A model generated the notes under the pieces. That model saw nothing but the letters and a program-made list of their open reading frames with translations, did no database searches and had not been told where the DNA came from. Shown here piece by piece: positions 8,506-22,851 of a DNA stretch of 63,468 nucleotides. The stretch lies in contig JAHHIK010000040.1 in the NCBI GenBank assembly GCA_019358935.1, positions 1-63,468 of the forward strand. Direction: 5' to 3'. Positions within the stretch are counted from its first letter, which is position 1. Every line of letters begins with the position of its first letter. The position numbers and the translations under genes were made by a program. This stretch comes from Tolypothrix carrinoi HA7290-LM1. Its GTDB lineage: Bacteria > Cyanobacteriota > Cyanobacteriia > Cyanobacteriales > Nostocaceae.

Positions 8506-8736
8506 ATGTTGCAATCAGTAGAAGGAATTTATCAAAACGGCAAAGTTGAGTTGCTACAAGTTCCCACCGATGTAGATGAAGCGCGTGTAATTGTCACTTT
8601 TCTTCCGAAATCTGGTTCTGTTGATTTGTCATCTCGCGGTATAAATCAGGAACAAGCCGCAAATCTACGCGCTAGGCTGCAAAGTTTTGCCCAAGATTGG
8701 GATAGTCCTGATATGGCAGCTTACGATGCCTTATAG
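8506..8736 (+). CDS. Putative type II antitoxin
   Basis: 76 aa, MLQSVEGIYQNGKVEL..WD.PDM..YD. Overlaps the start of the downstream PemK-like gene. Confidence 0.7.
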   Translation: MLQSVEGIYQNGKVELLQVPTDVDEARVIVTFLPKSGSVDLSSRGINQEQAANLRARLQSFAQDWDSPDMAAYDAL

Positions 8737-9061
8737 CCGTGGAGAAGTGGTACTGGTTTTCTTTCCAGATTCAAATCTCCGAACTGCTAAACGTCGTCCT
8801 GCCTTGGTTGTTCAGGCAGATCGTTTGGGGACTAATTTACCGCAAATTATTGTGGCTATGATTACCAGTAATCTTGCTCGTGCAGGACATCCTAGCCGAG
8901 TGTTGGTGCAGCTAACAACCCCAGAAGGGCAACAAACAGACTCAGTTATTATGACCGACAATCTTGTGACTGTTCTTGATATAGAAATTGATCGGACTAT
9001 TGGTGTCTGGTCAGATATGCTTTCTGTCGATGCTGCGCTTCGTCACACTTTTGGGCTTTAG
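8726..9061 (+). CDS. Type II TA toxin, PemK/MazF family endoribonuclease
   Basis: RGEVVLV.FP.S....K.RPALVVQ...IVAMITS motifs. Start at MPYSRG overlapping the antitoxin stop. Confidence 0.85.
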   Translation: MPYSRGEVVLVFFPDSNLRTAKRRPALVVQADRLGTNLPQIIVAMITSNLARAGHPSRVLVQLTTPEGQQTDSVIMTDNLVTVLDIEIDRTIGVWSDMLSVDAALRHTFGL

Positions 9062-14132: not shown

Positions 14133-14545
14133 TAGTGGGTAGTGGGTAATGGGTAATGGGTAATGGGTAATGGGTAATGGGCAATGGGCAATGGGCAATG
14201 GGCAATGGGCAATGGGCAATGGGCAATGGGCAATGGGCAATGGGCAATGGGCAATGGGCAATGGGCTTTTGTTTAATGCGAGATTTTTTCCATGCCCTAT
14301 GCCCTATGCCCTATGCCCTATGACGGCAGATGCGTGACTGTCTGGCGACCGAACGCACTGCCTCCCCCATGCCCCATGCCCTATGACGGCAGATGCGTGA
14401 CTGTCTGGCGACCGAACGCACTGCCTCCCCCATGCCCCATGCCCCACTATCCACGCTCCAACTATCCACTATCAACCAACAAGCAACAACTATCCACGCT
14501 CCAACTATCCACTATCCACTATCAACTAACAACCAACAACCAATA
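14133..14545. repeat. STRR arrays (GGG(T/C)AAT)n and (ATGCCC(T/C))n with two ~60-bp tandem copies of a small dispersed repeat
   Basis: ~18 heptamers at 14137-14265; duplicated atgacggcagatgcgtgactgtctggcgaccgaacgcactgcctccccc at ~14320 and ~14383. Confidence 0.85.
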
Positions 14546-14552
14546 ATCAAAA

Positions 14553-15107
14553 ATGAGCGATAAATACCTGACGATATCAGAATTTAATTTGGAAGGAGAA
14601 TTACTCAGTTTTATTGGTGATAAACCAAGAAAACCTAAATATTTGCGTTTAGTAGTTTCCTCTGAAGAGGTAGAAATTAAAATTCCAAAAGAATTGCGTA
14701 CCTCTATTAGTGTATCTTTAGTACCAGGTGATAAAATTCGCGTTGTTGGTGTTAGTAAGTTAAACAAGGTGACAGGCGAACTTAAACTTAAGGCTGATGG
14801 TGTGTCTCGAAGTGGTGTTTGCCCAAAGCAAAATGCACCTGACCAAAAAGCACGGATTATGATATGTCAAAAATCCGGTTGCTTGAAGCGTGGTGGTAAA
14901 GGTTTGTTGTCAGAATTAGAACAAACTTTATGCGATCGCGGTTTGTTAGATCGAGTTACAATCGAACGTACCAGCTGCCAAAAACGTTGTAGCAGCGCAC
15001 CCAACTGTATTTTACAGGTAGGCAAGAAGCAATACAACAAAGTGCGCCCCGAAGCGATCGCCTCTCTGTTAGAAAATCACTTCACCTGCAAAAGCGATGA
15101 ATGTTAA
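14553..15107 (+). CDS. Thioredoxin-like (2Fe-2S) ferredoxin domain protein
   Basis: ICQKSGC..RGG and CQKRC..APN motifs; usual neighbour of nifVZT. Confidence 0.8.
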   Translation: MSDKYLTISEFNLEGELLSFIGDKPRKPKYLRLVVSSEEVEIKIPKELRTSISVSLVPGDKIRVVGVSKLNKVTGELKLKADGVSRSGVCPKQNAPDQKARIMICQKSGCLKRGGKGLLSELEQTLCDRGLLDRVTIERTSCQKRCSSAPNCILQVGKKQYNKVRPEAIASLLENHFTCKSDEC

Positions 15108-15897
15108 CAAAGTAGTAAGCACGCTTTGTGCTTACTACCTCAATCGCCAATCTAACTTGCGTCCCATCAACTTTGAAAGTAAGCAACGCAAACCCTACCA
15201 AAGCCACAATATCTACAATCAATTTTCCCGTTATTGGTGCGACTAAAGTTTGTCGTAACGCTGATGCCGCATAAGTAGCAGGACTGAGATATCCTAAAGT
15301 TAGCAAAAATTCCGGCAAGCGATCGCCTGGTATTATCACAGGACCGATAAACAGCATTACCATTGACAACAGCAAGCTGAAAGAACCGCTTTCATCAGGT
15401 GTCCGTGCATACACACCGATAGCAGCACCCAACCCTGCTAAAGGTAGCACGCATAGAGGAATTATTAATACAATCAAAGGATTAATCGCTAAAGTAATTT
15501 TCAGAAATAAAGTTCCAAAAATAACAGTTGCTATCAATGAAGGTAGTGATAGCAGGAAAAATGATAATATAGTAGCAACAATTAAAGCTTGACGGTTAAT
15601 CGGTAAGGTTGCATAATAATCTAAAGTTCCGGCAAAGCGCATATAAGTAAAACGGTTTGCCAAATTATTATGGTTACTAAACATTAGCGACATAATCAAA
15701 TTTCCTGTGAGGATGTACGCTAAAGAATTTTGTGCAGAACCTTGTGCCAAGCTGCCAAGGGCAACGATACTTAAAATTGGTGCTACCATACTTGTGAGAA
15801 CGGTAGACCGCCAAGACCAACGCCAATTTGTCAGTTCCATTAACAATAAATCCAGCAACTGTACAAAAAAAGTCGGCGGTTTACGGTTTGGTTGCAT
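15082..15897 (-). CDS. ABC-2 type exporter permease
   Basis: Six hydrophobic segments, GTLDYYATLP, LP.....SPATYA..ALR. Confidence 0.85.
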   Translation of the reverse strand: MQPNRKPPTFFVQLLDLLLMELTNWRWSWRSTVLTSMVAPILSIVALGSLAQGSAQNSLAYILTGNLIMSLMFSNHNNLANRFTYMRFAGTLDYYATLPINRQALIVATILSFFLLSLPSLIATVIFGTLFLKITLAINPLIVLIIPLCVLPLAGLGAAIGVYARTPDESGSFSLLLSMVMLFIGPVIIPGDRLPEFLLTLGYLSPATYAASALRQTLVAPITGKLIVDIVALVGFALLTFKVDGTQVRLAIEVVSTKRAYYFVNIHRFCR

Positions 15898-16790
15898 AAT
15901 GCAAATATAAATCTTCTAAAGTTGCCGAGTACAAGCGAAAATCATCTATTTGTTCTAAATTTAGATGATTAAGCGTTGATGTAACTTGCTGCCATTGCAA
16001 CAATACTTGCCAATGTCCGGGTTCAAGAGAGTGGTAAGTTAAATCAGATGGTAAAGTGGGAGGATTTTCTGGTGAAAAAAACAGTTCTAAGCGCAACATT
16101 CGGTCAACTTTAGCTTTAAGTTCACTCGGACGACCGACTGCAACCAGTTCTCCACAATGCATGATACCAACTCTTTGGATTGCTTTTTCTGCCTCAATCG
16201 CATCATGGGTAATTAAAATAATTGTAGTTCCTTTTTCAGTGTTAAGGCGGCGTAAAATATCCCATACTAACTTGCGGCGTTGAGGGTCTAAATCATTCGT
16301 CGGTTCATCTAAAATTAGCACGGGTGGAGAACCTGCGATCGCAGTAGCTAGTCGCTTTCATTCGCCATTGTCCACCAGAAAGCCGAGAACTCGGTTGATG
16401 ACGCAGGTATCCAATTTGCCATGTATCCAGTAATGCTTCACACTCTTTGCGGGCATCTTGGCGACTCATTCCCCGCAAATGAGCGGTAAAATAAAGTGCC
16501 TCGCTGACAGTAAGATTATTGAGGGCGCCGCTTTCTTGGGGCATGTAGCCCACATTCATTTGTACTAAATCACGCGCTTCAGTGATATTTTGTTGAAAAA
16601 AAGTGATGTTACCAAAATCACTTTTCAGCAAGTTTGCCATTTGACGCACCAGAGTACTTTTACCCGCACCGTTGTCACCCAAAATACCAAAGATTTCACC
16701 TTGATAAATTTGTAGCGAGATGTTTTTGTTCGCGGGTTGAGTTTGCCCTTGATAAGTTTTACATAAATTTTCGATTTCGTAGACTATCAC
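15881..16790 (-). pseudogene. ABC exporter ATP-binding protein split by a +1 frameshift
   Basis: Walker A GDNGAGKST and LSGGQ in ORF 16305-16790; Walker B ILDEPT in ORF 15881-16321. Removing one base near 16355-16360 restores SGGQWRM.RLATAIAGSPPVLILDEP. Confidence 0.8.
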
Positions 16791-16872: not shown

Positions 16873-16901
16873 TTGACAACAAAGAACGTTTGTACTAGTA
16901 T
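16873..16901 (+). promoter_or_regulatory. sigma70-type promoter with LexA-like box in the spacer
   Basis: TTGACA(16873-78)-N17-TAGTAT(16896-901); AGAACGTTTGTACT at 16883-16896. Confidence 0.55.
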
Positions 16902-17161: not shown

Positions 17162-18166
17162 ATGACAAATCAAAATCAATCTTGGAATCTTCACGAACGA
17201 TTGGAGAAGTATCCAGGATACAGAGGTATGCACGTCTCCACATTTGCGAATCGGCAAGTTGTCGAATACAATCCGAATGTTGCTATCAGCGATTTTGTTA
17301 ACACCGCATACGCCATTCGATGCGAATATGATGCTCAAGAAGATGCTACAGAGAAACTGGCAGAACTTTTACAAGATTCTCAAGCTAGTAAAATAGAAGC
17401 TTTAATTTTTGGAATGTGGCATGGAGAAATGTATGCTCATAGTTCTCAGCTTGTAGTTGATGCGCTAATTGCTGCCAAAGATAAACTAACTAATTTGAAA
17501 GCGCTATTTATCGGAGATATTTCTTACGATGAAAGTGAAATTTCTTGGATAATACAAAGTGACATCAGCCCTATTTTAGAAGCATATCCCAAATTAGAAG
17601 TATTGCAAATTCGCGGTGGTGATAGTTTAGAATTTAGCCCCTTTGTCAGACATGAAAATTTGAAAGCACTAATTATTGAAACTGGCGGTTTGAGTAGTGC
17701 AACCATTGCTCAAATTTGCGCTCTCGACTTGCCGAAATTACAGCATTTAGAATTATGGCTGGGTTCAGATAGTTATGGTGGAGATTCCACAATTGAAAAC
17801 TTAAATCCTATATTAGTTAATCCAGTATTTCCTAACTTGATTTATTTGGGATTGCGAAATAGCCAATATTCTGATGATATTGCCAAGCTTGTTATAAATT
17901 CACCTTTAATTAACTCAATTAAAATTCTCGATTTATCACTAGGAACTTTGAGTGATGCCGGCGCTGATGTATTGCTTAATTGTTTTGCTGTTCATCAACT
18001 TAATATTCTCAATATTTCCGAAAACTTCTTATCAAAAAAAATGATAGCATCTGTGCAAGTAAAACAGGATGATATGCAAGTTCGCATCATCACTGATGGA
18101 CAGAAAAAACCGGAAGAAGATTATGATGAGGATGATGCTTATCGTTATTGCTCTGTTGCCGAGTAA
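17162..18166 (+). CDS. STM4015-family leucine-rich-repeat-like protein
   Basis: LKALFIGD...E.SEISWI.QSD, L.HLELWLG...YG, L.YLGLRNS, LDLSLGTL.D.GA; acidic tail ending RYCSVAE. Confidence 0.8.
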   Translation: MTNQNQSWNLHERLEKYPGYRGMHVSTFANRQVVEYNPNVAISDFVNTAYAIRCEYDAQEDATEKLAELLQDSQASKIEALIFGMWHGEMYAHSSQLVVDALIAAKDKLTNLKALFIGDISYDESEISWIIQSDISPILEAYPKLEVLQIRGGDSLEFSPFVRHENLKALIIETGGLSSATIAQICALDLPKLQHLELWLGSDSYGGDSTIENLNPILVNPVFPNLIYLGLRNSQYSDDIAKLVINSPLINSIKILDLSLGTLSDAGADVLLNCFAVHQLNILNISENFLSKKMIASVQVKQDDMQVRIITDGQKKPEEDYDEDDAYRYCSVAE

Positions 18167-18171
18167 TATAA

Positions 18172-19296
18172 ATGCTGAACGTCATCATCGCTAACCCGGA
18201 AAATCGGCGGGTTAATTTCTTTCAACAAGCGCTTAAAAATCTCAATTTACCACCTGCAATTGTCGTAGCTTATGCAGATTTAATTGCAGGTAAAACTCTC
18301 GAACATTTCAATACACCCGATACTATCATCCGGTTTGATTCCCCTGAAAAAAACTTTGAAGTTGAGAAAGCCATCATTGCTGTTGGTGCTGAAATTGCCG
18401 CAGGTAAACATCAACAAATTAATTCTGTCGAAGCTGCAAAATTAATCTTTAATAAAGGACGTATTCTCTACCCTCGACAATGGTATTTAGGCTGGCGATA
18501 TTTACTTCAACAATGGGAAAAGCAACTCAAATGCTCAATTATGAATCATCCGCAAGACATTGCGACGATGTTTGATAAACCGTTGTGTCATGAAAAATTT
18601 AATCACAACAATATCTCTGTTCCGCGTTCTTTGGGTATGATTGAAAACTACGAGCATTTACGCGAACAGATGCAGCAGCAAAAGTTGGAGCGAGTATTTA
18701 TCAAGCTTTCCCACAGTTCGGCTGCCTCTGGAGTCGTTGCCTATCAAGCAAATTCGCGCTTTGAGTCTGCTATAACTACGGTGGAACGAGTGCAGAAAAA
18801 CGGGCAAACACTGCTTTACAACTCGCGTAAAATTCGTAACTATACAAAAAGAGAAGAAATTGCCGATATTATTAACATTTTAACATCTGAAGGCGTTCAA
18901 GTTGAAGAATGGCTTCCCAAAGCACGGTTGCAAGGATGCGGTTTTGATTTGCGTGTCGTGGTTATCAACGGTGAAGCGCAGCATATCGTTGTCAGGTTGG
19001 GAAAAAGTCCGATGACGAATTTACATCTTGGTAATGAAAGAGGAGATAGTGAGGAATTTTTAGCGAAAGTTAAAGTTGAAAATTGGCAGGTGATGAAGCA
19101 AAGTTGCGAAGCTGTAGCAGCGTTGTTTCCTAATAGTTTATATTGCGGTGTTGATTTGTTGATTTTACCTGATTGGAAAAATCATGTAATTTTGGAAGTT
19201 AATGCTTTTGGTGATTTGCTACCTGGGATTACTTGGAATGGAATGGATACTTATACTAGTGAAATCAAAGCGATTTTTTCTAGTTTTCTGTTTTAG
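18172..19296 (+). CDS. STM4014-family ATP-grasp-like protein
   Basis: NPENRRV, MFDK, FIK..H.S.ASGV, VEEW.PK, FDLRVVV, SPMTNLHLG, GVD...LEVNAFGDLLP. Confidence 0.8.
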   Translation: MLNVIIANPENRRVNFFQQALKNLNLPPAIVVAYADLIAGKTLEHFNTPDTIIRFDSPEKNFEVEKAIIAVGAEIAAGKHQQINSVEAAKLIFNKGRILYPRQWYLGWRYLLQQWEKQLKCSIMNHPQDIATMFDKPLCHEKFNHNNISVPRSLGMIENYEHLREQMQQQKLERVFIKLSHSSAASGVVAYQANSRFESAITTVERVQKNGQTLLYNSRKIRNYTKREEIADIINILTSEGVQVEEWLPKARLQGCGFDLRVVVINGEAQHIVVRLGKSPMTNLHLGNERGDSEEFLAKVKVENWQVMKQSCEAVAALFPNSLYCGVDLLILPDWKNHVILEVNAFGDLLPGITWNGMDTYTSEIKAIFSSFLF

Positions 19297-19355
19297 ATAG
19301 GGAATGAGAAAATGAGAATATGAGAGCGCTAAAGCGCTCACTACGAAATACTTTT

Positions 19356-20180
19356 ATGCTGAATATGAATCAAGTTGTCGGTACACACGATATTCTGTTT
19401 ATTACTTTAGATACTTTGCGTTATGATGTTGCAAAAGATTTACTTGTAAAAGGACGCACTCCTAATTTAGCGGCAGTTTTACCCGAAAGTGGTTGGGAAG
19501 AACGCCATTCTCCGGGAAGCTTCACTTATGCTGCTCATCATGCTTTTTTTGCGGGTTTTCTACCTACTCCTGTAAAACCTGGAGTGCATCCAAGATTATT
19601 TGCTTTAGGTTTTGAGGGTAGTATGACTACTACTGAATGTACTTGTGTGTTGGATGGTGCTAATATTCTCAGTGGATTTGCGGCTAAAGGCTATCATACT
19701 GTGTGTATTGGTGGTGTCGGCTTTTTTAACAAACGAAATCCTTTAGGTAATGTGCTTCCTTCAATGTTTGCTGAGAGTTATTGGAGTCCGGAGTTAGGTG
19801 TCACCAATTTTAACTCTACAGAAAATCAGGTGGCGATCGCCCAAAAAATCCTCACCCAAACCCCCAAAAATCAACGCTTATTTTTATTCATCAATATCTC
19901 AGCTTTGCATCAACCGAATTATTTCTATCTAGCTGGTGCTAAAAAAGATACTATTGAATCTCACGCTGCTGCATTGGAATATATCGATAGTCAGTTAGGC
20001 AAACTCTGGGATGCCTTACGACAAAAGGCTTTTACGTTTTGTATTCTCTGCTCTGACCACGGCACAACTTATGGTGATGATGGATACACAGGTCATCGTC
20101 TCAGCCATCCAGCGGTGTGGACGGTTCCTTATGCGGAGTTTGTTTTGCCGGATTTTCAATTGGTATCCACACCCACCTGA
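19356..20180 (+). CDS. STM4013/SEN3800-family hydrolase (alkaline phosphatase/sulfatase fold)
   Basis: ITLDTLRYD, HSPGSFTYAAH, HQPN, CSDHGT.YG.DGY.GHR. Confidence 0.8.
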   Translation: MLNMNQVVGTHDILFITLDTLRYDVAKDLLVKGRTPNLAAVLPESGWEERHSPGSFTYAAHHAFFAGFLPTPVKPGVHPRLFALGFEGSMTTTECTCVLDGANILSGFAAKGYHTVCIGGVGFFNKRNPLGNVLPSMFAESYWSPELGVTNFNSTENQVAIAQKILTQTPKNQRLFLFINISALHQPNYFYLAGAKKDTIESHAAALEYIDSQLGKLWDALRQKAFTFCILCSDHGTTYGDDGYTGHRLSHPAVWTVPYAEFVLPDFQLVSTPT

Positions 20181-20302
20181 GATTGAAATCTCAGGCTAAT
20201 AGCTCAAGTCCATTAAAATGGACTGAATTCATTGCCTAGTCTTTCTTCTAGTCATCTTGAGATGACTTTAGCTATTAGCCTGCGGTTTATAACCGCAGGT
20301 GG
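20176..20302. repeat. Multi-hairpin palindromic MITE-like repeat (GGCTAATAGC..GCTATTAGCC family)
   Basis: Nested inverted repeats; related copy at 27427-27541. Supplies the stop codon of the upstream gene. Confidence 0.7.
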
Positions 20303-20344
20303 CGACGGTTTAAATGTAAGATGTCCAAAATTCATTTATATAAG

Positions 20345-21793
20345 ATGATTACAGCAAAACAGCAAAATCTAAAATCCTTTCTTGAGAAATCGCCTTATCA
20401 AGCTTACGTTTACTCATACCCGCATAAGACAGCTTATCGTCCTCTCACCCCGCCTGTCAAACTCGCAGATTTGTGGTCAAAGCAAGATAGACAAGCGCTG
20501 TTTCTCTACATTCACATCCCGTTTTGCGAAATGCGCTGCGGGTTTTGTAATTTGTTTACCACCGTCACCCATAACGAAGACTTTGTTAGTCAATATGTTC
20601 GCACGGTTGAGCGACAAGCGCGACAAGTAAAATCATTGTTAGGTGAAGTGACTTTTGCTAGATTTGCTCTTGGTGGCGGTACACCAACTCAGTTACCAAT
20701 TAACCATTTGGAAACAATTCTTAATGTGGCATCAGAAACGATGGGTGCAAACTTGCAGAATATTCCTGTTTCTGTAGAGATGTCACCAGAGACGGCAGAC
20801 AAAGATAAACTAGAATTATTGCGATCGCGTGGTGTAGATAGAGCAAGCATTGGTGTCCAAAGTTTCATCGAGTCAGAAGTTATTGCAACCGGTCGCCGTC
20901 AAACCACCGCGCAGGTAGAAGCCGCACTCACTCGGATGCGCGAGGCTGGATTTCCCACAATTAACATAGATTTAATTTACGGACTTCCCGGACAAACTGT
21001 AGATAGCTGGTTGTATTCGATACGTGCGGCTTTGCGCTTTCAGCCAGAGGAAATTTACTTATATCCTTTGTATGTGCGACCGCTGACAGGTTTGGGACGC
21101 TCGGATAAAGAATGGGATGATATACGTTTAGCATGTTATCGCGAAGGGCGATCGCTCCTGCTGTCATCTGGATATACTCAAGTTTCCATGCGAATGTTCC
21201 GACGTTTGGGACAAGGAGGACAAGGGAGACAAGGGGGACAAGGAGGACAAGGGGGAATTTCTTCCTCATCTCCCTCATCTCCCTCATCTCCCCCATCTCC
21301 CTCATCCCCTCCATCCCCCCATCCCCCACTCCCCCCCTCCCCCACTCCCGTCTACTGCTGTCAAGCAGATGGAATGGTCGGTTTGGGTTGTGGGGCACGT
21401 TCTTACACTGATACGTTGCACTACTCTAACGACTATGCTGTGAATTCTAGGGAAATTCGCGACATTTTGCTTTACTTTATTCAGACACCTGATGAAGTTT
21501 TCGAGTATGCTAATTATGGCTTTAAACTGGATGCTGAAGAACGCCGTCGTCGCTACATTTTATTATCTTTGTTTTCCGATGAAGGATTGAATCTTGCTGA
21601 CTATCAAAATCAGTTTGGGACAGATGTAATTGCATTTCCAGAACTTTCGCAATTGCTATCTTTGAATTTGGCGACACAAGATGAACAAATCTTACGTTTG
21701 ACTGAAGTTGGTATTGAGAAATCTGATGTAATTGGTGCTTGGTTATTTTCAGAGAAAGTAAACCAATTAATGCAAACTTATGAGTTGAAATAG
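20345..21793 (+). CDS. STM4012-family HemN-like radical SAM protein with in-frame repeat insertion
   Basis: YSYPHKTAY, LYIHIPFCEMRCGFCNLF, GGGTPT, SIGVQSF, NIDLIYGLPGQ, GLGCGARSY. Confidence 0.85.
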   Translation: MITAKQQNLKSFLEKSPYQAYVYSYPHKTAYRPLTPPVKLADLWSKQDRQALFLYIHIPFCEMRCGFCNLFTTVTHNEDFVSQYVRTVERQARQVKSLLGEVTFARFALGGGTPTQLPINHLETILNVASETMGANLQNIPVSVEMSPETADKDKLELLRSRGVDRASIGVQSFIESEVIATGRRQTTAQVEAALTRMREAGFPTINIDLIYGLPGQTVDSWLYSIRAALRFQPEEIYLYPLYVRPLTGLGRSDKEWDDIRLACYREGRSLLLSSGYTQVSMRMFRRLGQGGQGRQGGQGGQGGISSSSPSSPSSPPSPSSPPSPHPPLPPSPTPVYCCQADGMVGLGCGARSYTDTLHYSNDYAVNSREIRDILLYFIQTPDEVFEYANYGFKLDAEERRRRYILLSLFSDEGLNLADYQNQFGTDVIAFPELSQLLSLNLATQDEQILRLTEVGIEKSDVIGAWLFSEKVNQLMQTYELK

Positions 21794-21830
21794 TTGCCAT
21801 TATGAGAATAGAAACGTCGGTTTGTTAAAT

Positions 21831-21949
21831 CGCCCTCAGGCTAGAAGCCTGGGGCTAAACGAACGAAGCCCGCCTTCGCGGGCTTGAAGGACATCAGCCC
21901 GCGAAGGCGGGCTTTGTTCGCGTAGCCGCACCCTTCTAGGGTGTCGGCG
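21831..21949. repeat. Multi-hairpin palindromic MITE/REPIN-like repeat
   Basis: aagcccgccttcgcgggct ... agcccgcgaaggcgggcttt inverted pair with terminal hairpins. Confidence 0.7.
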
Positions 21950-21987
21950 ACTGCAAAAGCGATACTTTTATAATTCCCAATTCACTT

Positions 21988-22851
21988 ATGCATCTCACAA
22001 TTCTCTATCGCGGTTCTTTGATAAGTTGTAACTACGGTTGCGAATATTGCCCCTTTGCAAAACGTCAACAAACAGCCGCTGAATTAGCTATTGATAAACA
22101 AGAATTAGAACGCTTTGTAAATTGGATTGCTGAAAATTCACAACACCAATTCTCAATTTTATTCACTCCTTGGGGTGAAGCGCTTATTCATAAGTGGTAT
22201 CAACAAGCATTGGTAAAATTGACTCAAATGCCTCACGTTAATAAAGCGGCAATTCAAACTAATCTATCCTGTAATTTAGATTGGGTGGAAGAGTGTAATA
22301 AAGAAAGATTGGCACTTTGGGCAACATTTCATCCGGAATGGGTATCACGTCAAAGCTTTCTAAATAGATGTTTAGAACTCGATAAGCGAAATGTCTGTTT
22401 TAGTGCGGGTGTTGTCGGTTTTCCTCAATTCAAAGATGAAATTGCTGCTTTACGTCGCGAGTTACCTAAACACATTTATTTGTGGATTAATGCAGTTAAG
22501 CGAGAACTACCAAATTTGTCTGATGAAGACCGGAATTTTTTCGAGTCAATCGATCCGCTGTTTCATCTGAATACTCAGCATTATACCAGCTTCGGTCATC
22601 AATGCCGCGCTGGGAAATCAGCGATTTCAGTTGATGGTAATGGGACGATGCGACGTTGCCATTTTATTAAAGAATTAATTGGTAATATATATGATTTGAA
22701 TTGGTCAGATAATTTGTGCGATCGCTCTTGCATTAACCAAACTTGTCACTGTCACATCGGTTACGTTCATCTTGAGTATTTAGAACTAGACAAAGTATTT
22801 GGTTCTAGCATTTTAGAACGCATTCCTATCAACTTCCAACCATTAAAATAA
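21988..22851 (+). CDS. STM4011-family radical SAM protein
   Basis: YRG.L.SCNYGCEYCPFAK, FTPWGEAL, QTNLS; C-terminal Cys-rich C..G...RRCHF...C.CHIGY. Confidence 0.8.
   Translation: MHLTILYRGSLISCNYGCEYCPFAKRQQTAAELAIDKQELERFVNWIAENSQHQFSILFTPWGEALIHKWYQQALVKLTQMPHVNKAAIQTNLSCNLDWVEECNKERLALWATFHPEWVSRQSFLNRCLELDKRNVCFSAGVVGFPQFKDEIAALRRELPKHIYLWINAVKRELPNLSDEDRNFFESIDPLFHLNTQHYTSFGHQCRAGKSAISVDGNGTMRRCHFIKELIGNIYDLNWSDNLCDRSCINQTCHCHIGYVHLEYLELDKVFGSSILERIPINFQPLK

Follow-up and report, generated by a model that had tools for sequence, protein, structure and literature searches.

The window considered here, the whole 63,468-nucleotide stretch of contig JAHHIK010000040.1, comes from Tolypothrix carrinoi HA7290-LM1, a nitrogen-fixing, heterocystous Nostocales-type cyanobacterium whose nifH, nifU, nifS, nifB and nifV genes are present. 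On its + strand lies a five-gene cassette, STM4015-4014-4013-4012-4011, in which every open reading frame (ORF) is open. The cassette and the features that accompany it are:

16873..16901, + strand: sigma70-type promoter-like site, by consensus match only (-35 at 16873-16878, -10 at 16896-16901)
16883..16896, no strand assigned: cyanobacterial LexA (SOS) box over the spacer and -10, alike in form to the tabulated lexA, uvrA and ssb boxes of Nostoc (PMC3091678, Table 1)
17162..18166, + strand: STM4015-family leucine-rich-repeat (LRR) protein, 334 residues, proposed substrate or scaffold (NCBIfam score; fold match 2RA8, TM-score 0.82)
18143..18163, + strand: codons of the C-terminal heptapeptide R-Y-C-S-V-A-E, its final Glu invariant (tail comparison among STM4015 copies)
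18172..19296, + strand: STM4014-family ATP-grasp ligase, LysX/RimK-like, 374 residues (NCBIfam; R261 aligned to the RimK R189 position)
19320..20180, + strand: STM4013-family alkaline-phosphatase-superfamily enzyme with putative Thr69 nucleophile, NPP-like, 286 residues (NCBIfam, alignment)
20321..21793, + strand: STM4012-family HemN/NocN-like (class C-type) radical S-adenosylmethionine (SAM) enzyme, 490 residues (NCBIfam, alignment)
21208..21340, + strand: low-complexity tandem-repeat insertion, in frame, in an unconserved STM4012 loop (alignment with relatives)
21988..22851, + strand: STM4011-family Twitch-type radical SAM enzyme, 287 residues (NCBIfam, motifs, structure comparison)

A first-pass annotation, made from the sequence alone, had described five co-oriented families with open frames and intact catalytic motifs. 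Profile comparison bears this out: each protein scores above its NCBIfam cut-off (score/cut-off: STM4015 310.7/275, STM4014 429.6/175, STM4013 432.7/250, STM4012 606.6/380, STM4011 414.1/200), and at least 95% of homologues keep the catalytic motifs. The cassette is confirmed as real, intact and already catalogued in NCBIfam as STM4011-4015 (NF038073, NF006067, NF038075, NF038074, NF038076), with the same families, order and strand. Compared with other such cassettes, the window copy has no adjacent HAD phosphatase gene or DUF6745 pair (see below) and does have a LexA box. STM4015 is single-copy in this genome. Judging from relatives, the true starts of STM4013 (~19356) and STM4012 (~20345) likely lie a few codons downstream of the ORF starts.

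The repeat insertion in STM4012 encodes a Gly/Gln and then a Ser/Pro stretch, varies in length across relatives and plays no part in the mechanism proposed below. Intergenic inverted repeats also lie within the cassette, at 20186-20288 and 21830-21950 (arms of 25 and 55 nucleotides), and relatives carry unrelated genes inserted between STM4013 and STM4012.

Distribution and modular organization of the cassette

We compared 93 loci, all retrieved through STM4014: 7 come from relatives and 6 from plasmid records, and the other 80 are the best among 577 genome matches. All five genes are present in 67/93 loci and, where more than 5.5 kb is available on each side, in 59/71, with another 9/71 holding STM4015 and STM4014 only. 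Among split or short loci, STM4011 is found elsewhere in the genome in 12/14, and in split cassettes the radical-SAM genes move with STM4013, not with STM4015. From the five-gene majority, the loci with only the first two genes and the displaced STM4011 genes, we conclude that two modules, [STM4015+STM4014] and [STM4013+STM4012+STM4011], are kept together, as anticipated by the first-pass claim that these genes travel as a unit.

Records from Deinococcus, Streptomyces, Paenibacillus, Methylobacterium and Salmonella show the same gene order, and the cassette is present in at least 10 bacterial phyla or classes as well as in a Promethearchaeota archaeon. Among 61 relative genomes, STM4014 exceeds its cut-off in 8 and STM4015 has matches in the same 8, while STM4011 is present in those 8 and in one further genome that is 79% complete. 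More broadly, STM4015 was found in 6/401 cyanobacterial and 41/401 actinomycete genomes searched. When clustered at 50% identity, the ligase family comprises about 1000 clusters (1004 at E≤1e-10). A Promethearchaeota archaeon has related ligases (P0244/P0285), as possibly do protists (P0157, labelled Trimastix marina in EukProt), and another homologue, P0202, is fused to an F-box domain; contamination is possible for all of these. IMG/VR yielded no STM4014, and phage-borne copies were rejected: three STM4013 matches in a phage collection look like host fragments. A degenerate cassette, at L043:8660-12677 in a Bacteroides finegoldii record, comprises a WGR-STM4015 fusion, STM4014, an STM4013 fragment and an STM4011-HAD fusion, with no STM4012.

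Two kinds of gene recur nearby. A pair encoding a 98-residue His-rich protein and a DUF6745 protein is present, with both members, in 27/93 loci, and HAD phosphatase genes lie within 1.5 kb in 9 loci; HAD domains are also fused to STM4014 or STM4011, in two proteins. No peptidase, no one conserved exporter, and neither defence nor repair genes recur among the neighbours in the 93 loci. The small partner protein (98-110 residues) carries R-[QH]-G-D, T-G-H-x-H and H-E-E-H motifs and an invariant C-terminal Asp, and the DUF6745 partner ends in [EQ]-T (sites: L038:14082-15379, L150:13131-14452, L151:13112-14421, L152:7989-9325, L149:4968-5339). A homologue of the small protein lies in phage Ma-LMM01 among DNA polymerase, exonuclease, dUTPase and uracil-DNA glycosylase genes. 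Tolypothrix carrinoi itself has the pair at G000:C26:26300-27640, unlinked to the cassette and without a LexA box; the DUF6745 gene there is split over two frames, and the genome has four DUF6745 matches.

The first-pass annotation had regarded the function as unassigned, and we found no paper on it in the literature searched, which did not extend to subscription journals or bioRxiv supplements. We likewise found no literature on DUF6745 and none joining four of the five cassette domain terms, and nothing on the STM4015 family among the WGR/LRR/2RA8 matches listed; in the ESM Atlas, every cluster returned was either unnamed or STM4015-named. The cassette neighbourhood may be discussed in the amidoligase survey of Iyer et al. 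(2009). In the accessible portions of PMC3844500, PMC12413039, PMC4632510, PMC2784778 and PMC11964587, the families occur only as list entries.

A conserved STM4015 tail beside a LysX/RimK-like ligase

A conserved feature of STM4015 is its C terminus. From 147 STM4015 matches, we kept 140 closed copies scoring at least 200. Of these, 133/140 end in Glu, within an R-[YF]-x-x-[VL]-x-E-COOH tail; R stands at -7 in 131/140 and Y/F at -6 in 131/140, and the 7 copies without terminal Glu appear truncated or frameshifted. A later, held-out actinomycete set gave a terminal Glu in 30/30 (one copy seen before). The other four families have no invariant end, their commonest terminal residues reaching only 11/91, 14/74, 31/70 and 7/68. 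Codon use rejects an origin of the terminal Glu as a by-product of a Shine-Dalgarno sequence or ribosome-binding site: its GAA:GAG ratio (74:59) is near the internal ratio (1444:1289), which argues that the tail is not an RNA-level artefact.

The tail is preceded by an acidic linker of 31 to 54 residues (mean net charge -4.6 in 15 residues), is kept at the free end in 12/15 long STM4015 fusions, and appears on the last copy only in 3/3 double-LRR proteins. The predicted structure has a confident body resembling 2RA8 and a weaker tail (mean predicted local distance difference test score 94.7; final blocks 74 and 65). N-terminal domains are swapped among WGR, HEAT, TPR and WD40 forms, with WGR fusions in 5/10 long forms scanned; the window protein has no WGR domain. 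Up to six paralogues per locus, differing at tail positions -5, -4 and -2, lie beside one single-copy enzyme set. Arrays of 3-6 paralogues with a HEAT-like N terminus are found at Nostoc loci L044, L046-L052 and L059; that N terminus also occurs in neighbouring WD40 and SUKH proteins, and the arrays run divergently to an operon of DUF2997, GrpE-like and Hsp70-like genes (10-11 loci).

The adjacent STM4014 is a candidate to act on this end. STM4015 lies near it in 90/93 loci, and the pair stays joined in 9 split loci. STM4014 keeps the E342-x-N344 motif in at least 95% of homologues, and its best profile matches, all weak, are to LysX, with RimK lower; against RimK (TIGR00768) it scores 31.4, below the cut-off of 143.4. 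By an alignment with LysX, its R261 would occupy the position of RimK R189, the arginine described in the accessible portion of PMC10375531 as binding the partner's C-terminal residue.

In both LysW/LysX (ArgX) and RimK/S6, as in the cassette, an ATP-grasp ligase with a conserved D-x-R stands beside a partner with an acidic, Glu-ended tail. The LysW carrier is a small zinc-ribbon protein ending in EDWGE, whereas STM4015 has an LRR fold of 300 residues, swappable N-terminal domains and a different tail, and so falls outside that family. Nor does a kinase, reductase, aminotransferase or peptidase recur near the cassette as in the LysW system; their place is taken by an NPP-like enzyme and two of the radical-SAM type. 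By analogy, then, the cassette would work most like LysW/LysX or RimK/S6 while being a member of neither. The invariant C-terminal Glu points to a substrate, and we consider it probable that the STM4015 tail is the substrate of the STM4014 ligase.

The remaining three enzymes have recognizable classes. In STM4013, the D31/R34/D36 and D246-H247-G248 motifs are kept in at least 95% of homologues, Thr69 is invariant within a highly conserved region, and alignment with Xanthomonas NPP matches both Thr69 and the S-D-H-G metal site, with a T-x-x-x-H signature. Because Thr69 aligns with the NPP nucleophile, STM4013 appears to be an NPP-like phosphodiesterase or phosphotransferase. Of the earlier assignment to an alkaline-phosphatase/sulfatase fold, the alkaline phosphatase superfamily therefore stands and the sulfatase does not: the nucleophile is Thr rather than Cys/Ser, and the C/S-x-P-x-R signature is absent. 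Unlike the NPPs and related phosphotransferases of the superfamily, STM4013 is small, has no evident signal peptide and carries its own invariant G-G-V-G-F-F and G-H-R motifs.

STM4012 keeps its radical-SAM cysteines (C69-C73-C76) in at least 95% of homologues and aligns over the catalytic barrel to HemN (E 2.9e-29) and NocN (3.9e-26), with the HemN C-terminal domain present. It falls below the HemN and HemW equivalog cut-offs (145.9/324.95 and 138.9/205.4), and lacks the haem or thiopeptide context of HemN and NocN-NosN. We describe it only as like these enzymes, a putative class C-type radical SAM. STM4011 combines C14-C18-C21 with C206, C224 and C248-x4-C253-x-C255, again in at least 95% of homologues, and shares with BlsE, SkfB, MoaA and anSME a partial barrel and an auxiliary-cluster (Twitch/SPASM) domain. 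Structure comparison gave Z-scores of 15.8 for BlsE (root-mean-square deviation 3.8, 258 aligned), 15.2 for SkfB (3.9, 242), 13.9 for MoaA and 12.8 for anSME, at 12-16% identity. Identity as a prokaryotic viperin was rejected (18.8 against a cut-off of 180, with four extra invariant Cys).

Damage-type promoter motifs at the cassette and its partner pair

The box upstream of STM4015, noted as LexA-like in the first-pass annotation, overlaps the spacer and -10 of the + strand promoter-like site, a type of site found 23 times against 18 expected in shuffles. Strict boxes of this kind lie upstream of only 28/4730 ORFs in the genome, and the 39 intergenic examples include those of lexA, uvrA and ssb. 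Among 28 cyanobacterial-type loci, the cassette box is strict in 6 and has one mismatch in 6 more, with varying spacers; held-out cyanobacterial loci have a one-mismatch box in 4/4. The box matches the genome's own lexA, uvrA and ssb boxes, recurs in relatives and is kept where the neighbouring ABC genes are absent. LexA likely controls the cassette in Tolypothrix carrinoi. Two other strict boxes in this genome, G000:C11:100390 and C109:4082, precede the genes for an IteA-like AAA ATPase (scoring below the family cut-off) and a tyrosine recombinase.

Actinobacterial and Deinococcus loci carry candidate motifs of other damage regulators. A RecA-independent promoter motif of the PafBC type was first spotted in one Streptomyces locus and then tested on 19 actinobacterial loci including that one; the consensus was later confirmed in the accessible portion of PMC8635444. 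The strict form (tGTCgg-N10-tA-N3-T) lies upstream of STM4015 in 10/19 of these loci, where 0.04 would be expected, and upstream of the partner gene in 7/10, so that all 17 strict matches there fall at one of the two promoters; it is found in 0/49 non-actinobacterial loci. In Deinococcus, a DdrO box, recognized from examples in the accessible portions of PMC8533742 and PMC5552922, precedes the partner pair in 3/3 cassette loci, and not STM4015. The WGR-domain protein DR2173 of D. radiodurans is reported as mitomycin-induced in PMC8533742; like DRA0166 and Escherichia coli MolR, it belongs to a group of WGR/DUF4132 proteins that resemble the cassette in their WGR domains and damage-inducible control, though none of them is an STM4015 protein, and the accessible portion of that paper describes for them neither a ligase nor a radical-SAM module. 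D. radiodurans DRA0165-0166 was rejected as a DUF6745 pair, since despite a similar box it is a DUF4132 operon. For S. venezuelae, no gene in the accessible mitomycin table could be mapped to the cassette, vnz_13495 belonging to a different neighbourhood. Taken together, motifs of three unrelated damage regulators (LexA, PafBC and DdrO) appear to point the same way.

The surroundings of the cassette in the window are incidental. The first-pass annotation had placed it next to the nif island and an exporter, and a link to either does not hold: the nif-side position is common to only 3/7 related loci, and the ATP-binding cassette (ABC) genes occur in 1/7. In the window, the ABC-2 exporter ATPase gene (15881-16790, - strand) is split by a frameshift near 16358 and is intact in relative L031, and the ABC-2 permease gene (15082-15897) is open. 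The cassette locus is stable in position in several relatives. Elsewhere in the window, a PemK/MazF-type toxin gene (8687-9061, + strand) lies within the nif region, and heptamer tandem repeats with a duplicated ~60-nucleotide element occupy 14140-14540, between nifT-like ORFs and a 2Fe-2S ferredoxin-like gene.

A proposed tail-conjugation pathway and its alternatives

The first-pass annotation had suggested protein modification or a stress role, and the tail Glu beside a ligase, along with the damage-type promoter motifs, supports both. We propose that the cassette encodes a DNA-damage-inducible protein-tail conjugation system, and give this reading as a whole a probability of about 0.4. Gene content, co-occurrence, tail invariance, enzyme classes and promoter motifs are direct observations, from which we infer induction, contact between STM4014 and STM4015, and all of the chemistry. 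DNA damage would lead to LexA cleavage and transcription of the operon. STM4014 would then bind the acidic, flexible STM4015 tail and, with ATP, activate the carboxylate of the terminal Glu (Glu334) as an acyl-phosphate for amide linkage to an amine, a step modelled on LysX acting on LysW and RimK acting on S6. The STM4013-4012-4011 module, often with a HAD phosphatase, may supply or tailor this amine, for which a group derived from a nucleotide or a sugar phosphate is the most plausible candidate: STM4013 could cleave or transfer a phosphodiester via phospho-Thr69, STM4012 could add a SAM-derived one-carbon unit, and STM4011 could perform a radical oxidation or cross-link. The product would remain on the LRR protein, which its swappable WGR, HEAT, TPR and WD40 N termini would target.

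Several observations weigh against this reading. The LysX/RimK profile matches of STM4014 are weak, D-x-R motifs occur in many ATP-grasp ligases, P0290 (a WGR-LRR-to-STM4014 read-through protein) has lost the tail, and the nearest folds of STM4011 are tied between nucleoside and peptide enzymes (BlsE/SkfB). On the regulatory side, 16/28 cyanobacterial-type loci lack a LexA box (3 of the 16 for want of upstream DNA), one-mismatch matches are expected at 0.1-0.3 per region, and the Salmonella record has no SOS box. In held-out actinomycetes, the strict PafBC motif precedes STM4015 in 1/40 loci; it lies on the divergent strand in 12/40, and a variant with the -26 element, the same spacing and a non-canonical -10 is found in 26/40 (0.29 expected). 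According to the accessible portion of PMC9380542, the PafBC motif did not emerge as conserved in S. venezuelae from an initial search. The Deinococcus DdrO box serves the convergent partner pair rather than the five genes, and D. ficus has the pair and box with no cassette within 16 kb. De novo motif searches in Planctomycetota, Chloroflexota, other phyla and non-Nostocales cyanobacteria gave nothing above shuffles. Finally, many loci are close kin, such that promoter and locus counts overstate their independence.

The strongest competitor, though itself unlikely, is a carrier-dependent pathway in which STM4015 would act as a LysW-like amino-group carrier, with the Glu-loaded cargo tailored and then released as a metabolite (antimetabolite, signal or protectant). 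The same terminal-Glu counts (133/140; 30/30) fit this too, BlsE is the top structural match of STM4011, and the mix of ATP-grasp, Twitch radical-SAM and phosphatase enzymes resembles that of peptidyl-nucleoside pathways. Such release is hard to reconcile with the lack of a recurrent peptidase or conserved exporter in the 93 loci, and a 300-residue LRR protein amplified up to six-fold with varied N termini is unlike small single-copy carriers.

Somewhat less likely again is lesion or genotoxin capture, in which STM4014 would join the tail directly to an amine borne by damaged nucleic acid or by a genotoxin, with STM4013 and HAD trimming the phosphodiester or phosphate termini and the radical-SAM enzymes resolving the adduct. 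Damage-type promoters, the WGR fusions and the small partner protein's place among phage DNA-metabolism genes favour it, against which the window STM4015 has no WGR domain, no repair genes recur as neighbours, and neither radical-SAM enzyme is closest to spore photoproduct lyase (for STM4011, Z 8.8 against 15.8 for the top match).

Two further alternatives seem improbable to about the same degree. STM4011 (SkfB-like) and STM4012 might cross-link or methylate Y/F-x-[A/S]-V-x-E, with STM4014 capping or cyclizing the product, in the manner of ribosomally synthesized and post-translationally modified peptides. The C-x4-C-x-C auxiliary motif, the high ranking of SkfB, anSME and SuiB among STM4011 matches, and the variation of tail positions -5, -4 and -2 among paralogues are in keeping with this; yet the radical-SAM genes accompany STM4013 rather than STM4015 in split cassettes, there is no recognized leader-binding domain or protease, and the phosphodiesterase and HAD would go unexplained. 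Alternatively, the Glu could have a structural role, held in the conserved concave face of the LRR, with STM4015 a sensor or scaffold and the enzymes acting on a free metabolite; in a variant, STM4011 would mature Thr69 of STM4013 as anSME does sulfatases. Conserved polar residues along the LRR strands (S128, R151, E197 and W199, window numbering), anSME as top Foldseek match of STM4011, the conserved Thr69 region and the movement of STM4013-4012-4011 as a block speak for it. Internal LRR copies without a tail and the variable linker length speak against it, and the NPP-type T-x-x-x-H signature, not being C/S-x-P-x-R, needs no maturation.

Least likely is an anti-phage or conflict role under the control of damage regulons; anti-phage chemistry was also raised by the first-pass annotation. 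The patchy spread (8/61, 6/401 and 41/401 genomes, as above), paralogue arrays and the LexA box before the IteA-like ATPase are offset by a stable locus without recurrent defence neighbours and by the 2023 PADLOC profile library, which matched neither STM4015, STM4014 nor STM4013 and matched STM4012 and STM4011 only as generic radical-SAM enzymes.

For the proposed tail-conjugation system, the analysis names a specific candidate substrate, Glu334 of STM4015, and a candidate inducing condition, DNA damage. At its broadest, and with considerable doubt, the cassette may represent an undescribed branch of the DNA-damage response, recruited separately by LexA, PafBC and, via the partner pair, DdrO, which would place a nucleotide-derived, radical-SAM-built prosthetic group on a C-terminal Glu, or ligate the tail to damaged nucleic acid or genotoxins. 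If true, the DNA-damage response would gain a novel protein modification as well as new chemistry performed by two orphan radical-SAM families.

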